A DNA stretch of 64,000 nucleotides from Candidatus Blautia intestinavium (GCA_019113745.1 DXGV01000031.1:5776-69775); one strand, 5' to 3'; shown: positions 53,311 to 63,558, counted from the stretch's first letter. The notes: generated by a model not told the origin, from the sequence alone. Translations and numbers: made by a program.

Positions 53311-53338
53311 AAAGACGGCTCCAGGGCCGTCTTTATTT
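53311..53338 (+). terminator. Terminator after cbiD
   Basis: AAAGACGGC-TCCAGG-GCCGTCTTT then ATTT. Confidence 0.65.
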
Positions 53339-53496
53339 CGTGAAGTAATATGATTCACGAAAGATTCACAAAAAATCCGGGGTGTTTTCCTATATAAAAA
53401 GAAGTTTCATTGGTCGAATTAATTATTTTATCTTTATATTATTGCCGAAAACCATATAAATGATCAAAATTGCATGATTTGCGTCAGATATATTTC

Positions 53497-53525
53497 TTTA
53501 CATAAAAAAAAATATGTGCTAAAAT
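53497..53525 (+). promoter_or_regulatory. sigma-A promoter of the TnpB-like gene with A9 tract in spacer
   Basis: TTTACA(53497-502)-17 nt (TAAAAAAAAATATGTGC)-TAAAAT(53520-25), TG-extended -10. Confidence 0.65.
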
Positions 53526-53590
53526 AACGCTTGTTAATAATAAATATCGCTTATCATATTACTTCACGAAAAATCTGAGGTGTTTTTTCT

Positions 53591-54853
53591 ATGGAAAAAA
53601 CGGGCTATTATTCCGTGACAGTCAGAAAATTTAATGTTTTGTCCCGTCATACAGACTGGATGAGAAAGACACAGGAACTTTATAACGAGATTGTTTATTT
53701 TTACTACAGTCTCTATCTGGATATCGTGGAGGAAAATAACGCAGTAGAACAGTTCGCGCATGAGGGAACTCCTCAATCTGCCGGAAGAGAAAGAAGGGGT
53801 GATTTTTCCAGTTCTCAGGAAGCCATGAGAGAGCTTGAAAAAATGACGATCATCGGGAGAGAGAAAAAACCTGTTTCCAATCCCCTTCCATGGAAAAAAG
53901 TTCCTCTCTACTTTCGCAGAGCGGCCATAAACACCGCTATAGCGGCGGCAAGAAGTTTCCTTTCCAGGAAAGAACAAAAAACGAGAACAGAAAAATTTGC
54001 AGAGCCGGTAACCTTTTACAAAGGAATGTATAAAGACTTTACCGGAAATGAAATTTTTTTGAAGCTGTGGAATGGTTCTGTATGGCAGTGGACGCGATGC
54101 AAGTTAAGGGGAAATACAGTTCCGCAGGAAGGACAGATGATGTCCCCGTCGCTGATCATGAGGGAAAAACGGATTGAGCTTCATATCCCGTGGAAAACCG
54201 CGATAAGCGACATGAGGACTGCAAAACAGAAAATGGCGGACAGTGAAAAAGTGTGTTCCGTGGTTTTTACAAACCGAAACGCATTGATGGTGTGCTGTAT
54301 CATAGGCCATTCCGGCGAAAAAGAAAGCTGTCTGTTCTTGAAAGGCGGAGCTGAGTATGCTTTCCGATGCCGGACTTTACTGGAAAGAATTGAAAAGTCT
54401 CAGAAAGCCGCGGGGGGAGGCGGAAATCCAAGAGCCAACAGAAAATACTGGGAGAAGCTGAAAAATCTGAACGATTATTATTCTCATCAGTACAGCAGAC
54501 AGGCAGTGGATTACTGCAAGGCTCATGAAGCGAAAATTATTGTACTACCGCAGTTTGAGAACGTTTATCAGACCTATATCATGAAACAGGCAGGAAATTT
54601 TTCTCCTATTCATCTTAGTTCTGCTATACGAGAGAAAATCAAATACAAAGCATGGCGGGAGGGAATCACCGTTTTGGAATCCGTACAGCATAATATTAAT
54701 TCTGTGTGCAGCGTATGCGGAGGACAAATAAAGACTTACGGCAGTTTGTATCAGTGCGAAAACGGGCATCAGGGGAACAGGTATCTGAATTCCGCCTGGA
54801 ACCTTGGAATAAAGTGCAGGGAGTCTTTTCGGACAAAACAGTCAGAAGACTGA
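53591..54853 (+). CDS. TnpB/Cas12f-like protein with predicted inactive RuvC (TldR-like)
   Basis: 420 aa; 'PLYFRRAAINTA', 'SHQYSRQAVDYC', 'KIKYKAWREGI', zinc ribbon 'CSVCG..YQCENGH', 'NRYLNSAWNLG'; catalytic positions read V225, P320, Y398 instead of D/E/D. Confidence 0.8.
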   Translation: MEKTGYYSVTVRKFNVLSRHTDWMRKTQELYNEIVYFYYSLYLDIVEENNAVEQFAHEGTPQSAGRERRGDFSSSQEAMRELEKMTIIGREKKPVSNPLPWKKVPLYFRRAAINTAIAAARSFLSRKEQKTRTEKFAEPVTFYKGMYKDFTGNEIFLKLWNGSVWQWTRCKLRGNTVPQEGQMMSPSLIMREKRIELHIPWKTAISDMRTAKQKMADSEKVCSVVFTNRNALMVCCIIGHSGEKESCLFLKGGAEYAFRCRTLLERIEKSQKAAGGGGNPRANRKYWEKLKNLNDYYSHQYSRQAVDYCKAHEAKIIVLPQFENVYQTYIMKQAGNFSPIHLSSAIREKIKYKAWREGITVLESVQHNINSVCSVCGGQIKTYGSLYQCENGHQGNRYLNSAWNLGIKCRESFRTKQSED

Positions 54854-54978
54854 TATATGCTTTACTTGTGAACAACAGATAATCAAGGCCGCATGAGTGG
54901 CCTGAAATTTATCACCTGGTATTAGATAAGTTAAAAATATTAGTTTAATATTGTTACCGCGAAAATGAAAAGAAAAAG

Positions 54979-55137
54979 ATGAAAACTGGCAGCTCAAGCG
55001 CCATTTTCATAGATCTTATGGGAAACCGTAAAAGGCCGGCGCCTACAGGGAGACGGCCATGGGTATGAGCACCGCCCGCCGGAGCCGGATAAGGCCCCGG
55101 GAAGACGGCAGTTTAGGAGCTGCGAAAGTGCTTGAAG
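54979..55137 (+). ncRNA. Candidate structured RNA (omega-RNA-like scaffold or EPS-operon leader)
   Basis: GC-rich island in AT-rich intergenic DNA with at least five stems incl. TTATGG-GAAA-CCGTAA and a multiloop closed by TGAGCAC/GTGCTTG. Confidence 0.55.
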
Positions 55138-55191
55138 TTATCAGAAAAGCTTAAAATATCAGCAGATAATAGACAGAAAAGGATGAAAATC

Positions 55192-55359
55192 ATGATTGTC
55201 TTTATAGTGATCATTATCGCTGTAGTAGCCGTGGCTGTGTCCTGGATGCTGATTGCCGGAGCTTGGTCCGGCATAGATGACCACAGAGCCAGCGATGAAG
55301 AACAGATGAAAGCCTGTCATATGATGAATGAGGCGCGAAAAAAGAAAAAAGGTAAATGA
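55192..55359 (+). CDS. Small single-TM hypothetical protein
   Basis: Hydrophobic N-terminus, basic C-terminus; AAAGGA RBS before ATG 55192. Confidence 0.5.
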   Translation: MIVFIVIIIAVVAVAVSWMLIAGAWSGIDDHRASDEEQMKACHMMNEARKKKKGK

Positions 55360-55386: not shown

Positions 55387-57453
55387 ATGGATAAGGCTAA
55401 AGATACACGGGGAATAAAAATCAAACACTGGAAAATTATCGCGTTTTATCTTCTGATCTATGACGTGGTGGCGGTTAATGCATCTTACTTTCTGGGACTG
55501 CTGCTTCGCTTTGATCTCAGATATTCCAATATACCTGAAGAATATTTATACGCTTTTTTGAAATTTGCCCCAATTTATACATTATTTACGGTTGCCGTAT
55601 TTTATGTGTTCAGGCTTTACAACAGTTTATGGCGTTTTGCCAGCTTCAGTGAGCTGAATCGTATCCTGGCAGCTACGGGAATTACGACATTGTTTCATGT
55701 GGCCGGGATTACTCTGACGATGAGCAGAATGCCGGTTTCCTATTATGTGGTAGGCGCTGTGGCGCAGTTCTGCCTGGTAACGGCCATCCGGTTTTCTTAC
55801 CGCTTTGTTATTCTTGAGAAAGCCAGAAGAGATAAAAATATCCGTTCCGTACATAACGCCATGGTCATCGGGGCCGGCGCCGCGGGCCTGGTAATCCTGA
55901 AAGAACTGAAGGTGTCAAACGACGCAAATTCCAGACCGCTCTGTGTAATAGATGATAATCCAAATAAATGGGGACGGGTGATGGACGGCATTCCCATCGT
56001 GGGCGGCCGGGACAAAATCCTGGAATCGGTGAAGAAATACAATATCGACCAGATTTTGTTTGCAATTCCCTCGGCTACAGCAGAACAGAAAAGAGATATT
56101 CTGAACATATGTAAGGAAGCAGACTGCGAACTCCTGACCCTGCCGGGAATCTATCAGATGACAAACGGCGAGGTATCTTTAAGCAAAATGAAGCCGGTTG
56201 CGGTAGAGGATCTGCTTGGGAGAGAGCCGATCAAAGTAAATATGGAAGAAATTTTCCGGCATCTCAAGGGAAAGACGATCCTCGTCACCGGTGGAGGAGG
56301 ATCCATAGGAAGCGAATTATGCAGACAGATAGCAGGACACGAGCCGGGTCAGCTTATCATTTTTGACATATATGAAAATAACGCTTATGAGATAGAACAG
56401 GAGCTAAAAAGAAAATATCCAAAGTTGAATCTTGTGGTTCTGATTGGTTCTGTCAGGGATAGCAGACGGATCAACTGGGTGTTCGAACATTACAAACCGG
56501 ATATTGTTTATCATGCGGCAGCCCACAAGCATGTGCCGCTGATGGAAACCAGTCCAAATGAAGCGATTAAAAATAATGTGATAGGTACATATAAGACTGC
56601 CTATGCAGCACTGAGAAACGGGACAAAAAGATTTGTTCTTATCAGTACGGATAAGGCAGTGAATCCTACGAACATCATGGGAGCAAGCAAACGTCTCTGC
56701 GAGATGGTCATTCAGAGTATGGACGCCATCAGTAAAGAAGGAAGAATCGACCTTCTTCCCTTCCTTCACGCCCATATGGATAAAGTTATTGACGGACAGC
56801 TAGCGTCTGATCCTATGGATCATATGGCAGTAGATGGTATGGAAAATGAAGAAAATTTTATCCGTATTGAGAGTACCAGTAATAAAGACAGGAATGGAAC
56901 ACAGTTTGTGGCAGTCCGGTTTGGAAATGTGCTGGGAAGCAATGGTTCTGTAATTCCGCTGTTTAAGAAACAGATAGAGGCGGGAGGTCCAATAACTGTT
57001 ACTCATCCGGACATTATTCGATATTTCATGACTATTCCGGAAGCGGTGAGCCTTGTGCTGCAGGCCGGAACTTATGCATGGGGAGGAGAAATCTTTGTTC
57101 TGGATATGGGAGAGCCGGTGAAGATTGACACTCTGGCCAGAAATCTGATCCGTCTCTCCGGCTATAAACCGGATGAGGATATCAGGATCGAGTATGTGGG
57201 CCTTCGCCCGGGAGAAAAACTTTACGAAGAGAAGCTGATGGCCGAAGAGGGAATAAAGAAAACAGACAATGACCTGATCCATATTGGTAAACCTATTCCC
57301 TTTGATACGAAAGTTTTTCTGAAACAACTGGAAGAACTGGCAAAAGCCAGCTACGAGAACTCAGAAAATATCGTAGAAATGGTAGAAAAGATTGTGCCGA
57401 CATTCCATCCGGCAGAAAAAAATCATACCACTGACAACAAAGTTACCGCTTAG
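55387..57453 (+). CDS. Polysaccharide biosynthesis nucleoside-diphosphate sugar 4,6-dehydratase (CapD/PglF family)
   Basis: N-terminal TMs, 'TGGGGSIGSEL', 'HAAAHKHVP', 'STDKAVNP', 'VRFGNVLGS', 'RPGEKL'. Confidence 0.93.
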   Translation: MDKAKDTRGIKIKHWKIIAFYLLIYDVVAVNASYFLGLLLRFDLRYSNIPEEYLYAFLKFAPIYTLFTVAVFYVFRLYNSLWRFASFSELNRILAATGITTLFHVAGITLTMSRMPVSYYVVGAVAQFCLVTAIRFSYRFVILEKARRDKNIRSVHNAMVIGAGAAGLVILKELKVSNDANSRPLCVIDDNPNKWGRVMDGIPIVGGRDKILESVKKYNIDQILFAIPSATAEQKRDILNICKEADCELLTLPGIYQMTNGEVSLSKMKPVAVEDLLGREPIKVNMEEIFRHLKGKTILVTGGGGSIGSELCRQIAGHEPGQLIIFDIYENNAYEIEQELKRKYPKLNLVVLIGSVRDSRRINWVFEHYKPDIVYHAAAHKHVPLMETSPNEAIKNNVIGTYKTAYAALRNGTKRFVLISTDKAVNPTNIMGASKRLCEMVIQSMDAISKEGRIDLLPFLHAHMDKVIDGQLASDPMDHMAVDGMENEENFIRIESTSNKDRNGTQFVAVRFGNVLGSNGSVIPLFKKQIEAGGPITVTHPDIIRYFMTIPEAVSLVLQAGTYAWGGEIFVLDMGEPVKIDTLARNLIRLSGYKPDEDIRIEYVGLRPGEKLYEEKLMAEEGIKKTDNDLIHIGKPIPFDTKVFLKQLEELAKASYENSENIVEMVEKIVPTFHPAEKNHTTDNKVTA

Positions 57454-57693: not shown

Positions 57694-58218
57694 ATGGACA
57701 ATATACATAACTGGTATGTGATGCAGGTCCGCACCGGTACAGAAGAAAGTATCTGTAAGCAGTGCAGAAAAGATATTGAAGAAGAAGTCCTGGAGAAATG
57801 TTTCCTGCCATTTTATGAAGAAAAAAGGAAAATCCAGGGCCAGTGGAAGATTCTAAAAAAACTTCTCTTTCCCGGATATGTATTTGTTATTTCCAGCGAT
57901 ATAGACTGCCTGTACCAACAGTTGAAGAAAGTAATCGGTCTGACAAAGCTGATCGGTACAGGAAAGGAGATCATTCCACTTACAGAAGAAGAGGTAAGAT
58001 TTCTCATGAAATTCGGCGGAGAAGAGCAGATCGTAGCCATGTCAGAAGGAATTATTGAAGGTAGTAAGGTAATTATCAACTCCGGCCCATTACAGGGAAT
58101 GGAAGGATACATAAGGAAGATTGACAGACATAAGCGGAAAGCATATCTGGAGGTCCCATTCTTTGGGAGAGTGCAGAAAGTACAGGTGGGGCTGGAGATT
58201 GTGGAGAAGAGGATTTGA
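57694..58218 (+). CDS. loaP: NusG-paralog transcription antiterminator LoaP
   Basis: 'WYVMQVRTGTE', 'LFPGYVF', KOW 'SGPLQGMEG.IRKIDRHKRKA' basic patch; within EPS locus. Confidence 0.85.
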   Translation: MDNIHNWYVMQVRTGTEESICKQCRKDIEEEVLEKCFLPFYEEKRKIQGQWKILKKLLFPGYVFVISSDIDCLYQQLKKVIGLTKLIGTGKEIIPLTEEEVRFLMKFGGEEQIVAMSEGIIEGSKVIINSGPLQGMEGYIRKIDRHKRKAYLEVPFFGRVQKVQVGLEIVEKRI

Positions 58219-58248
58219 AAATTAATAATCTATAGAGGTAATGTGAAC

Positions 58249-58683
58249 ATGCAGCATATAGATTTAAAAGGAAAGAGAATATTTGTAACAGGCGCCGCCG
58301 GATTCATCGGCGCAAATCTGGTTATGAATCTGTTGGAAACAATTTCACCGGTTACAATAATCGGGATTGATAATTTAAATGATTATTATGACGTTTCCAT
58401 AAAAGAATACCGGTTAAAAGAAATCAATAAGAAAGCAGAAAATCATCCGGAATCCTCCTGGACATTTATCAAAGCAGATATTTCCGATAAATCTGTGATC
58501 AATGTACTGTTTCAGATTTATAAACCGGAAATTGTGGTAAACCTGGCGGCCCAGGCAGGCGTGCGATACAGTATTACCAATCCGGATGTATATATCAGCT
58601 CCAATCTGAATGGATTCTATAATATTCTTGAAGCCTGCCGTCATTCCTATGACAACGGGGCAAAAGGCGTGGAACGTCTTTGA
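58249..58683 (+). pseudogene. Truncated NAD-dependent epimerase (UDP-glucuronate 4-epimerase-like)
   Basis: 'VTGAAGFIG', 'NLAAQAGVRYS' present; stops where 'LVYASSSSVYG' and the catalytic YxxxK should follow. Confidence 0.8.
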
Positions 58684-59052: not shown

Positions 59053-60297
59053 ATGAATAAGAAAATTGCTGTAGCAGGAACAGGATATGTCGGATTGTCA
59101 CTGGCTGTCCTTTTGGCACAGCGCAATCAGGTGACGGCTGTGGATATCGTTCCAGAGAAAGTAGATTTCATTAATAATCGCATTTCTCCGATTCAGGATG
59201 AATACATAGAGAAGTACTTAGCAGAGAAAGATCTGAATCTGACTGCTACATTGGATGGCGCTTCAGCTTATAAAGATGCTGAGTTTGTGATCATTGCTGC
59301 GCCGACCAATTATGACAGCAATAAGAATTTCTTTGACACATCTGCTGTGGAATCAGTGATTGAGTTGGTTCTGAAATCCAATTCGAATGCCATCATGGTG
59401 ATCAAGTCTACAATTCCGGTTGGATATACGAAATCTGTGCGTGAGAAGTATCACTGTGACAATATCATCTTCAGCCCTGAGTTTCTAAGAGAATCTAAGG
59501 CTCTTTATGACAATCTGTATCCATCCCGGATTATCGTCGGTACGGATGAGAGTGATGAAAGACTGGTAAGTGCTGCACACGAGTTTGCAGGGTTACTGCA
59601 AGAAGGTGCCATTAAAGAGAATATTGACACATTGTTTATGGGATTCACAGAGGCCGAAGCTGTGAAGTTGTTTGCCAATACATATCTGGCACTGCGAGTA
59701 TCCTACTTCAACGAGCTGGACACATACGCAGAAATGAAAGGCTTAGACACACAGGCAATTATTAATGGTGTATGCCTGGATCCCAGAATTGGCAGCCACT
59801 ACAACAATCCGAGTTTCGGTTACGGCGGATACTGCCTGCCGAAAGATACGAAGCAGTTGCTGGCGAACTACGCTGATGTTCCTGAGAATTTGATAGAAGC
59901 CATCGTCGAGAGTAATCGGACAAGGAAGGATTTTATTGCAGATCAGGTTCTTCGTAAGGCCGGTTATTACTCTTACAGCGAGGATAGTGATTATGTAGCG
60001 GATCGTGAGAAGGAAGTTGTTGTTGGTGTGTATAGGCTCACGATGAAGAGTAATTTAGATAACTTCCGCCAGAGCAGTATTCAGGGCGTGATGAAAAGAG
60101 TGAAGGCCAAGGGTGCTGTTGTAGTGATCTATGAGCCTACATTGGAGGATGGCAGTACGTTCTTCGGTAGTCGGGTTGTGAATAATCTGGAGGAGTTTAA
60201 AAAGATTACTCAGGCGATTATCGCTAATAGGTACGATAGTTGCCTGGATGATGTCGCTGAGAAGGTTTATACGAGGGATGTTTTTATGCGGGATTGA
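59053..60297 (+). CDS. ugd: UDP-glucose 6-dehydrogenase
   Basis: 'GTGYVGL', 'SPEFLRE', '[12 protein letters not shown]', '[10 protein letters not shown]'. Confidence 0.95.
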
Positions 60298-60819: not shown

Positions 60820-63558
60820 ATGTCTATTGATAAGAATAAAATCAAAAAAATCATAGGAGTTTCTATGGTCGCTATAGGAGCTGCGTTTGTAGGCATGAGT
60901 ATTCTTGCCAGAAAGAAAAACCCGTCTTCTGTGTATGAAGATGATAGAGAACAGAAAAATCCGTTTGAGGGTAAGACAGTTGTCCTCGTTGAGGATGAGA
61001 ATGATAAAGAAAATGCAGACGGTGTGAAAGGGCATCTGGAAGCGGTTGGTGATTCTGAGTATAACCCCTCTTTTTATGAGAAACACGTTAAAAGAGCCAT
61101 AGATATAGTTCTGTCATTCGGTGGTATTGTAGTCCTCTCTCCTGTTTTCGCTGCCATTGCTCTTGCTATTAAGATCGAAGATCCAGGTCCGGTATTATTC
61201 ACGCAGAAGCGGGTTGGTCAGAATAAGAGATATTTTAAATTACATAAATTCCGCTCCATGAAGATGAGCACACCGCACGACGTACCGACTCACCAGTTGG
61301 AGAATCCGGAGCAGTACATAACAAAGGTTGGAAGGTTTCTGCGTGCTCATAGTCTCGATGAGCTTCCACAGATCTGGGACATTTTCATTGGAAACATGTC
61401 TGTGATTGGCCCTAGACCTGGACTTTGGAATCAGGATCTGTTAACTGCTGAGAGAGATAAATATGGCGCTAACGATGTGAAACCTGGCCTGACTGGCTGG
61501 GCTCAGATTAATGGTAGAGATGAGCTGGAGATTCCTGACAAGGCGAAGCTAGATGGGGAGTACGTTAAGAAGATGGGGCTGGGGATGGATATAAAGTGCT
61601 TCCTTGGCAGCGTTCATGTAGTTGGAAAAGATGATACGGTAGTTGAAGGTGGAACTGGGGAGATGAGGAAAAAATCTGTCGGTCGCCATTACACAGATGG
61701 GAAAAGCAATGCTGAACTAATAGGACATATCGGATTCGGAGAAACTGTCCAGATTGATCAGGTCGTTCAGAAGCGCGTGTTAATCACAGGTGCCGGTTCT
61801 TATATTGGAGAAACCTTCCGAGCGTATGCTGCAGAGCATTATTCCGACAACTTTACGATAGATGCTGTGGATATGATAGATCCTTCCTGGAGAGATATGG
61901 ATTTCTCCTCCTACGATGTTGTTTATCATGTGGCAGGAATTGCTCACGCTGATGTAGGTAATGTATCGGATGAGGTAAAGGAAAAGTACTATTCTGTTAA
62001 CACTGATTTGGCGATAGAGGTTGCTGAAAAGGCGAAAGCTGATGGCGTCAAAGAGTTTATCTTCATGTCCTCTATGATTGTATATGGAGAGTCTGCGCCC
62101 TATGGAGTGAAAAAGGTTATTGATGAACACACAGTTCCAAGTCCTGCAAACTTCTATGGTGATAGCAAGCTGCAGGCTGATGTGGGAGTCCGGGAACTGG
62201 CTGATGAAAAATTCAAAGTAATCGTTCTCCGACCGCCGATGATCTATGGAAAAGGCAGCAAGGGGAACTACCCTACATTGGCGAAGCTGGCGAAGAAGTT
62301 ACCAGTATTCCCAGATGTAGATAATGAACGCTCCATGCTGTACATAGAGAATCTGTGTGAATTTCTGTGCCAGATTATGCTGGTGAAGAAAGTAAAGGAG
62401 AATGCCATTGTCCTGATTCCACAGAATGCAGAGTGGACTAAGACCAGTGAGATGGTTAAAGAGATTGCTAAAGTAACTGGTGGGAAGGCCAGAAGTGTTA
62501 AATTTTTTAATGCGGCAGTAACTATTGCAAGCAAGGTACCAGGTAAGATAGGAGGACTTGTAAATAAGGCATTTGGGAATAGCTGCTATGATCATGCGAG
62601 TTCTGTTTATCCGGGAATTGAATATCAAATTATCTCTTTGATAGGGTCCCTAAAGAAAACAGAGACTGTGATATCTAATAATCATATGTCATATGATCCT
62701 TTGACAGAAAGAGACTGTGAAAAATATAGTATATTAATGTCAGTATATAAGAACGATAAGGAAGATCATCTCCGTTTAGCTATTGAGAGCATGCTTAAGC
62801 AAACGGTACCTCCAGAACAGTTTGTTATTGTTGAGGATGGTCCGGTTCCATCTGCTTTGGATAACTTGCTTTTGAAGTACACTAAAACATACCCTCAGTT
62901 ATTTACGGTTGTAAAATTGGATCAGAATGGTGGATTAGGGAATGCTTTAAACCAAGGGTTAAAATTCTGCAGAAATGAACTAGTAGCACGGATGGACTCA
63001 GATGACATCTCAAAATCTAATAGATGTGAACTTGAATTAAAAGAATTTTCTAAACATCCCAATATGGGTATTGTAGGAACACAGATTGATGAGTTTATAG
63101 GTGATACTTCAAATATTACCTCTCAAAGGATTGTTCCAACTGAACACAAGGATATTGTTAAGTTTGCAAGACGCCGGAGTCCCTTTAATCATCCAACTGT
63201 TATGTATAGAAAAAGTGTTATAGAAAGTCTAGGAGGCTATACTGCATATGGAAGAAAAGAGGATTTGGATCTGTTTATACGCGCAGTTAACGAAGGTGTT
63301 TACACAAGAAATTTAGAAGAGTCTTTATTATATTATCGCACCAGCAATGATAATTTGAAAAGAAGAAAAACGTGGATTAATTGTAAAGAATACATTCAAA
63401 TCATGGTAGGCTTTAAGAGAAAAGGTTATATCAATTTTGATGATTTGGTTTATGTGATAACAGGCCAAATGATGATGTATATACTGCCTGATAAAATTAC
63501 GAAATCTTTGAGTGATATATTCCTTAGAAAAATGTCTGCCAATAAGGGGAAAAGATAA
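60820..63558 (+). CDS. Fusion: priming phosphoglycosyl transferase + NAD-dependent epimerase + GT2 glycosyltransferase
   Basis: 'KFRSM..SLDELPQ..GPRP..PGLTGWAQING'; 'ITGAGSYIG..YGDSK'; 'YSILMSVYK..RMDSDD..FNHP'. Confidence 0.85.
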   Translation: MSIDKNKIKKIIGVSMVAIGAAFVGMSILARKKNPSSVYEDDREQKNPFEGKTVVLVEDENDKENADGVKGHLEAVGDSEYNPSFYEKHVKRAIDIVLSFGGIVVLSPVFAAIALAIKIEDPGPVLFTQKRVGQNKRYFKLHKFRSMKMSTPHDVPTHQLENPEQYITKVGRFLRAHSLDELPQIWDIFIGNMSVIGPRPGLWNQDLLTAERDKYGANDVKPGLTGWAQINGRDELEIPDKAKLDGEYVKKMGLGMDIKCFLGSVHVVGKDDTVVEGGTGEMRKKSVGRHYTDGKSNAELIGHIGFGETVQIDQVVQKRVLITGAGSYIGETFRAYAAEHYSDNFTIDAVDMIDPSWRDMDFSSYDVVYHVAGIAHADVGNVSDEVKEKYYSVNTDLAIEVAEKAKADGVKEFIFMSSMIVYGESAPYGVKKVIDEHTVPSPANFYGDSKLQADVGVRELADEKFKVIVLRPPMIYGKGSKGNYPTLAKLAKKLPVFPDVDNERSMLYIENLCEFLCQIMLVKKVKENAIVLIPQNAEWTKTSEMVKEIAKVTGGKARSVKFFNAAVTIASKVPGKIGGLVNKAFGNSCYDHASSVYPGIEYQIISLIGSLKKTETVISNNHMSYDPLTERDCEKYSILMSVYKNDKEDHLRLAIESMLKQTVPPEQFVIVEDGPVPSALDNLLLKYTKTYPQLFTVVKLDQNGGLGNALNQGLKFCRNELVARMDSDDISKSNRCELELKEFSKHPNMGIVGTQIDEFIGDTSNITSQRIVPTEHKDIVKFARRRSPFNHPTVMYRKSVIESLGGYTAYGRKEDLDLFIRAVNEGVYTRNLEESLLYYRTSNDNLKRRKTWINCKEYIQIMVGFKRKGYINFDDLVYVITGQMMMYILPDKITKSLSDIFLRKMSANKGKR

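Follow-up and report, generated by a model that had tools for sequence, protein, structure and literature searches.

Organization of the locus

The window, that is, the whole stretch of DNA analyzed here, comprises 64,000 nucleotides of the Candidatus Blautia intestinavium genome (GCA_019113745.1 DXGV01000031.1:5776-69775), and coordinates given without a locus or contig label count from its first letter. An intact ORF at 53591..54853 on the plus strand, recognized as such by the initial annotation, encodes a 420-aa nuclease-dead protein of the Cas12f/TnpB fold, an assignment drawn from the ORF, an AlphaFold model, structural matches and an alignment. It is preceded by an RBS (GAGGTG, 53577-53582) and followed, after the stop codon, by a GC-rich hairpin (54883..54905, plus strand), a structured RNA and a polysaccharide operon. 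The first polysaccharide gene (55387..57453, plus strand) encodes a CapD/PglF-type nucleotide-sugar dehydratase of 688 aa, which groups with Polysacc_synt_2 proteins of related loci; between it and the RNA lies a 58-aa hydrophobic ORF without a Pfam family (55183..55359, plus strand), and similar ORFs follow the RNA in L003, L034, L036, L080, L084, L086 and L091-L093. Further along the same strand the operon contains a LoaP antiterminator (57694..58218; NF033641, 185.6 bits against a cut-off of 125), a UDP-glucose dehydrogenase (59053..60297) and a 912-aa fusion of a priming sugar transferase, an epimerase and a GT2 glycosyltransferase (60820..63558). The epimerase/dehydratase ORF at 58243-58683 spans only the N-terminal part of its domain and is probably a broken gene. 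An association of the regulator with LoaP-containing loci, suggested earlier, appears incidental: LoaP formed no cluster with the neighbours of other loci and is not recurrent among them.

A nuclease-dead member of the Cas12f/TnpB fold

The AlphaFold model of the protein, built on 86 homologs, has a pLDDT of 92.6. Its closest structure is OsCas12f (9nzs; Z 23.3, rmsd 3.9, 353 aligned), and the further top matches are AsCas12f, SpCas12f1 and ISDra2 TnpB (8h1j; Z 20.7). The sequence profiles match weakly, with Pfam TNB at E 3.9e-8, above its cut-off, and NCBIfam guided_TnpB at 46 bits, for which the cut-off is 100. Homologs at E<=0.001 number 241. All 86 of these homologs keep the zinc ligands C373, C376, C389 and H393, a conservation that together with the structural match bears out the TnpB architecture and zinc ribbon proposed from the sequence. 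Position 320 is proline in 83 of the 86, and no acid stands among the top six residues listed for each of columns 225, 320 and 398 of alignment A1.

The RuvC register is fixed by P0163, a relative with an intact D-E-D triad (29% identity, E 2e-58), whose alignment equates V225 with D, P320 with E and Y398 with D and so confirms the three replacements that the initial annotation had named. More relatives with an intact triad were reached by a wider profile search: in the alignment of 43 long profile matches a group of 14 splits off (SH-aLRT 100), in which 11 proteins have the complete triad, and the remaining 29 retain at most one of the acids; because the tree was quick and midpoint-rooted, no order of events is claimed. 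Pairwise dN/dS within the dead clade has a median of 0.13 and a range of 0.07-0.25 over 36 non-independent pairs, in line with the selection on a retained frame that had been suspected, and the strain in run X17 differs from the window gene by a dN of 0.007 and a dS of 0.086. All three RuvC acids are thus replaced clade-wide, under purifying selection. Viral contigs yielded no relative of the protein, and in metagenomes the D-E-D relative appeared on one short contig, without usable RNA or TAM context.

Gene neighbourhood and distribution

A GTDB scan returned 76 loci of the dead-Cas12f family, titled mostly Blautia and also Bariatricus, Coprococcus, Dorea, Frisingicoccus, Acetivibrio and Eubacterium. 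For 60 of them the first one or two downstream ORFs were annotated by Pfam, and a polysaccharide gene is among the first two in 49 of these 60 loci, co-oriented in 48, so that the conjectured synteny with polysaccharide genes holds among homologs. Of the loci outside the Pfam set, three are duplicates or fall into polysaccharide clusters, five have the same non-polysaccharide neighbours as loci within the set, and eight are without a usable downstream ORF. Polysaccharide genes are not next in 16 of the 76 loci, which is counted against a capsule-regulator reading. The family often has several copies per genome (up to eight matches) and is patchy, with carriers making up 8 of 36 genomes in the genus and 7 of 260 in the taxonomic family, and some copies are broken. 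The second copy in the window's genome, on contig C23, is 56% identical and lies ahead of a glycosyltransferase and rmlA.

Among the nearest upstream genes scanned there is no Y1 transposase, and the annotated neighbours in the window include neither tnpA nor a recombinase, as had been noted; fliC, oppF, csrA and ECF/sigma factors are likewise absent from the nearest annotated neighbours. The CRISPR array search of loci L001-L115 had a sole match, a spacer-free 55-nt repeat present three times in tandem (L032:4113-4277), 1.7 kb upstream of the gene. An ordinary IS605-type TnpB (L052:4417-5526) lies immediately upstream of one family member. Downstream of cbiD the window and L031 have the gene, whereas L120 has in the same slot a polysaccharide locus that bears a site but lacks the gene. 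In a Frisingicoccus-like group (L012, L015, L018, L021, L022, L029, L030, L033, L039 and L050) the gene mostly stands last in a locus for adhesins, pili or sortases, and several of these loci also contain a serine recombinase; L029 and L030 carry a 142-nt segment in opposite orientations.

An invertible promoter

The initial annotation gave the gene its own promoter and RBS; both stand, but it overlooked that the promoter sits in an invertible segment. The left recombination-type site (53336..53362) has palindromic arms and an asymmetric spacer, and the right one (53545..53571) lies just 5' of the RBS. The stretches 53336-53354 and 53553-53571 form a perfect inverted repeat of 19 nt, and the 198-nt segment thus enclosed (53355..53552) carries the promoter, which points towards the gene in the window. 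This predicted sigma70-type promoter (TTTACA-17-TAAAAT with a TG, 53497..53525, plus strand) has a layout also present in the paralog's segment; since the promoter scan overall was at chance level (4 vs 3.9), the call rests on position and conservation.

Paired inverted repeats occur upstream in 23 of 27 loci tested, seven of them enclosing a tyrosine integrase, and two pairs of close genomes carry the segment in opposite orientations (L023/L024, 96%; L044/L045, 97%). Three of four DNA runs had the window orientation only; the fourth, X14, from a different study, had one contig with 53355-53552 reversed and both joints in the repeats. This contig belongs to another strain, and contigs drop minor variants; the data show two promoter states across strains, rather than switching within one clone. 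A candidate trans-acting invertase is an integrase (G000:C49:16262-17251; L199:6278-7255) that shares 51-53% identity with three of the four family-linked integrases compared with it. It sits after a priming sugar transferase.

The gene is covered by contigs in four metatranscriptome runs from three studies. RNA contigs start at 53569-53583 in three runs, none of the assembled contigs of the RNA runs lies upstream of 53569, and in one run contig pieces extend through the structured RNA to 55496. In two runs of one study the RNA contigs end at 54872-54873 and restart at 54920, around the hairpin, and a run of another study bridges this gap.

A 2023 survey (PMC10691335) described dead TnpBs beside phage-integrase-like tyrosine recombinases, in either orientation, between inverted repeats that also occur without an integrase, and it read these repeats as attachment sites in a transposase-like association. 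Its SI Table S5 contains a 391-aa protein of Blautia producta DSM 2950 flanked by an integrase and FlaA1, and the genome of that strain has three loci of the dead-Cas12f family; by description, the integrase-flanked dead TnpB of the survey is very likely of the same family as the window gene. Section 9 and the part of the supplement considered here contain nothing on phase variation, a guide, a target or capsule regulation. On the evidence of those parts, the conserved system has been glimpsed before, without a functional interpretation as capsule control. The association, of which the initial annotation knew no description, is therefore not wholly new to the literature, given the survey's integrase-flanked dead TnpBs, one of them beside FlaA1.

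The same survey's reading of the repeats, the patchy distribution and the broken copies would fit a functionless mobile-element relic carried along with polysaccharide cassettes, its repeats being integrase attachment sites. We disfavour this explanation as highly improbable: the repeats are inverted rather than direct and the segment has been seen flipped, and a dN/dS of about 0.13, a covarying RNA and conserved target-like sites all speak for function.

The structured RNA and its predicted guide

A conserved element is found 3' of the gene in most loci, ending in GAAGTTAT and followed by A/T-rich sequence. In the window it forms a structured RNA scaffold at 55004..55134 on the plus strand, with an approximate 5' end. 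The multi-stem RNA that had been placed between the gene and the EPS genes is thus indeed structured, but it begins about 150 nt 3' of the stop codon, near 55004, and the 58-aa ORF intervenes before the first polysaccharide gene. In an alignment of 44 sequences of similar length, in which three pair columns were set after the alignment had been seen, six helices have 92% of cells paired and a covariation of 0.70, against 0.28 when shuffled and at most 0.17 when slid. Rfam has no family for the RNA at E<5 except two chance matches.

The 3' end of the scaffold is a pseudoknot in which the loop of a short invariant stem (55066-55072) pairs with the seven bases preceding AAGTTAT (55128-55134, plus strand); it is 95.8% paired, and five of its seven pairs are compensatory. 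In ISDra2 the corresponding pseudoknot spans positions -6 to -2 relative to the guide (PMC10097598). From this analogy and from the position of the pseudoknot directly before AAGTTAT, the guide is predicted to start at 55135 (55135..55150, plus strand); it matches and covaries with sites in operon leaders. A guide start after GAAGTTAT gave genome matches of 10-16 nt without a common flanking motif and was set aside because the pseudoknot ends before AAG.

Candidate target sites in polysaccharide operon leaders

The candidate target site in the window (54922..54940, plus strand) lies between the gene and the RNA and consists of the predicted TAM TTAGAT (54922-54927) and AAGTTAAAAATAT, which departs from the consensus at a single base, guide position 7. 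It is the sole match with at most three mismatches that keeps GAT-AAGT in the window's genome, which is 83% complete. The contiguous match to both guides of this genome is 6 nt only; overall the site agrees with the paralog guide at 9 of 10 positions and with its own guide at 7 of 10.

Across 55 kb of leaders the pattern GAT + AAGT(T/A)A(T/A), which was chosen post hoc, occurs 26 times in the forward and 0 times in the reverse direction, against 0.68 in shuffled sequence. Several further counts are independent of that choice. All exact TAGATAAGTTATA matches away from the gene in carrier genomes number 18, variant sequences lying outside this count; 15 of them are intergenic and co-oriented in polysaccharide operons, and seven of these 15 are directly 3' of a priming sugar transferase. 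Sites co-occur with the family, being present in 16 of 35 carriers versus 3 of 28 non-carriers; for a related pattern the figures are 3 of 7 carriers versus 12 of 253 non-carriers, with eight genomes in the backward control. Most pattern matches in non-carriers either have no AT-rich context or look like coding sequence, and one of two non-carrier sites examined is in a polysaccharide locus. In one such genome without a close family member, G054, the full motif precedes a fucose-pathway gene in a polysaccharide locus (L134).

In three guide classes the sequence match between guide and site spans only 6-11 nt, and in two lineages guide and site change together. Where guides read AAGTAAT, both leader sites read TTGAT|AAGTAAT. 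For GAGGTAT guides, six of 11 pattern matches are intergenic, read TTAGAT|GAGGTAT and in every case precede a glycosyltransferase, and four of the six were new after prediction; the raw count of 11 in this class is not above the backward control of 9, and only context separates the six sites. Target prediction failed in Eubacterium, where two genomes gave one match, before a gene without a family. The Eubacterium loci L053, L057, L058, L061-L063, L065 and L097 have the common guide start GAGTTTT, which four leader motifs match over at most 4 nt.

Five Frisingicoccus-like carriers, of which some copies were scanned, have 15 matches versus one in the control, and 12 of these are in cps or gmd loci: five precede cpsB-type genes, five follow the LCP gene of the same locus and two precede gmd, with three elsewhere. 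For four of the five cpsB-type sites a TTGACA-17 promoter lies about 20 nt upstream. The concentration of these sites in the cps locus hints at an adhesin-versus-capsule switch.

Most sites are at most 40 nt from a start codon, downstream of intact sigma70 promoters. They are conserved at positions 9-15, where the guides are not, which suggests a second constraint on the sites, and the motif is near-palindromic. These properties raise the question of whether the motif is instead a site for another protein or an RNA-polymerase pause, with a vestigial guide and a protein that acts in cis on the nascent RNA, for example as an antiterminator; the non-carrier motif in a polysaccharide locus, the location of the RNA in the operon leader and the RNA contigs that continue through it in pieces would be compatible with this. 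We nevertheless consider it distinctly unlikely, since the motif starts exactly after a TnpB-like GAT, tracks carrier genomes and changes together with the guide in two lineages; moreover, in the adhesin-linked group a terminator-like hairpin lies 3' of the RNA, leaving nothing to antiterminate.

It would also be conceivable that the ribonucleoprotein controls inversion, either hindering or assisting the invertase next to the right repeat, as one sub-group has its site about 15-30 nt downstream of that repeat. Many sites are far from the repeats, however, such as those after the gene (as in the window), after the RNA or in gene-less operons, which makes such a role very unlikely.

Own versus foreign guides

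Guides tend to match the site of their own locus poorly. Over 23 site-bearing loci for which a paralog guide is available, the summed own-guide prefix match is 146, versus 160.5 +/- 5.2 when guides are permuted within genomes (p 0.003), and guides matching over at least 8 nt belong to 4 of 23 site-bearing loci versus 17 of 23 site-less loci. The match of the best paralog guide is longer than that of the own guide at 13 of the 23 site-bearing loci, tied at seven and shorter at three; for the mean paralog guide the corresponding numbers are 12, six and five. Same-genome guides do not differ significantly from foreign guides (185 vs 175.8 +/- 7.0, p 0.11). As the loci are related, these p-values are overstated.

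G029 has the self-mismatching guide AAGATAT at each of its three site-bearing loci, and L163 and L168 have the self-mismatching GAGTTAT. In G238 the site of L156 matches the L163 and L168 guides, and the L163 and L168 sites match the L156 guide; L156 and L163/L168 are a possible mutual repression pair. The gene of L081 is intact, and its guide matches its own site over 9 nt. TldR seeds are about 6 nt long (10.1101/2023.11.30.569447), so that a locus may be hit despite a mismatch at position 8.

The guides could bind these same sites with a different outcome, either self-limiting feedback on all site-bearing operons or an aid to transcription through pausing, antitermination or activation. The first 7 nt, common to all guides of a genome, may exceed the seed, same-genome guides match no better than foreign ones, and nuclease-dead Cas12f activators exist (PMC13472631). 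Feedback or aid is nonetheless unlikely in our judgement, because self-mismatches at seed 4-5 recur in separate lineages (L064, L095, L096, L027, L089, L110, L115, L163 and L168), the sites are downstream of intact sigma70 promoters close to the start codon, and a sigma factor is absent among annotated neighbours.

A proposed RNA-guided road-block

The clade-wide loss of the D-E-D triad, purifying selection, synteny, the pseudoknotted RNA and the candidate leader target together support, at the level of sequence, a domesticated, nuclease-dead and likely RNA-guided regulator of surface glycans. We propose, with a probability of about 65%, that a cassette in the phase-ON state produces a ribonucleoprotein that road-blocks other surface-polysaccharide operons, as an RNA-guided analogue of UpxZ. 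The promoter, of which the flipped state was seen, would be inverted by a tyrosine invertase whose gene lies within the segment or acts in trans; the ON promoter would then drive a single transcript over gene, RNA and cassette, pieces of which were recovered. The protein would bind the RNA, whose pseudoknotted structure is derived from covariation, and the complex, guided from AAGTTAT to a predicted guide end, would recognise, on the coding strand, a predicted TAM, (T/A)AGAT, on the promoter side of AAGTTATA. For TldRs, repression from within a 5' UTR occurred only when the TAM faced the promoter (10.1101/2023.11.30.569447). Given this orientation rule, a road-block is favoured for the sites found here, which are on the coding strand of the transcribed leader with the TAM on the promoter side.

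Sites are present in gene-less and in some gene-bearing loci, and the own guide tends to mismatch the own site; the default coat may therefore be silenced by any ON cassette, with a hierarchy among the cassettes. The site of the default locus often lies right after the priming transferase, so that shared upstream genes would stay on, and one-base changes in guide or site might rewire the hierarchy. We give even odds to the wider proposal that Lachnospiraceae and relatives have an RNA-guided capsule logic in which self-sparing guides road-block a shared site in the default locus and in lower-ranking cassettes. The initial annotation missed the invertibility of the promoter as well as the guide and its target.

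Relation to known systems

The TldR clades named to date in the main texts are those linked to fliC, oppF and csrA only (10.1101/2023.11.30.569447, PMC13622181). The present family resembles them in its RuvC-dead TnpB fold, the lack of tnpA, a guide RNA encoded downstream, a short seed and a TAM-flanked target, predicted here, near genes of the linked kind. It differs in clade and neighbours, the main texts of both papers being without Blautia or Lachnospiraceae, and in its invertible promoter, the multiple paralogs within one genome and the placement of the predicted targets in many polysaccharide-operon leaders. The best structural matches, the similar size and the TNB zinc finger are shared with Cas12f; unlike Cas12f and the dCas12f-sigmaE systems (PMC13472631), there is no CRISPR array or sigma factor among the neighbours examined, and unlike the dCas12f-sigmaE activators the family has a single omega-like RNA and is predicted to repress, not to activate. 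Active TnpBs of IS200/IS605 or IS607 elements differ from it in the D-E-D triad, which is lost here.

Bacteroides fragilis has several polysaccharide operons with invertible promoters and one without inversion, under UpxY/UpxZ control (PMC11685472). There, too, the regulator is first in the operon and non-cognate operons are inhibited at elongation, as is predicted here; UpxZ has no homology to the present family and works as a protein, by blocking a NusG paralog (PMC11685472). Specificity here would instead come from RNA-DNA pairing. In the literature outside subscription papers, we found no report of a dead TnpB associated with invertible promoters of polysaccharide loci, or with a GAT-AAGTTAT target. 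The transposase-like integrase association of the 2023 survey is reinterpreted here as an invertible promoter.

The proposal makes concrete predictions, namely the guide start, the TAM, the target positions and which locus silences which, for a compact predicted repressor of 400 aa with a scaffold of roughly 130 nt. In Bacteroides, the choice of surface polysaccharide shapes phage resistance and immune recognition. If the proposal is true, the family would couple phase variation to a natural RNA-guided regulator, an independently evolved, CRISPRi-like counterpart of Bacteroides UpxZ, and it would provide a testable mechanism by which abundant gut Firmicutes choose one surface polysaccharide among several.
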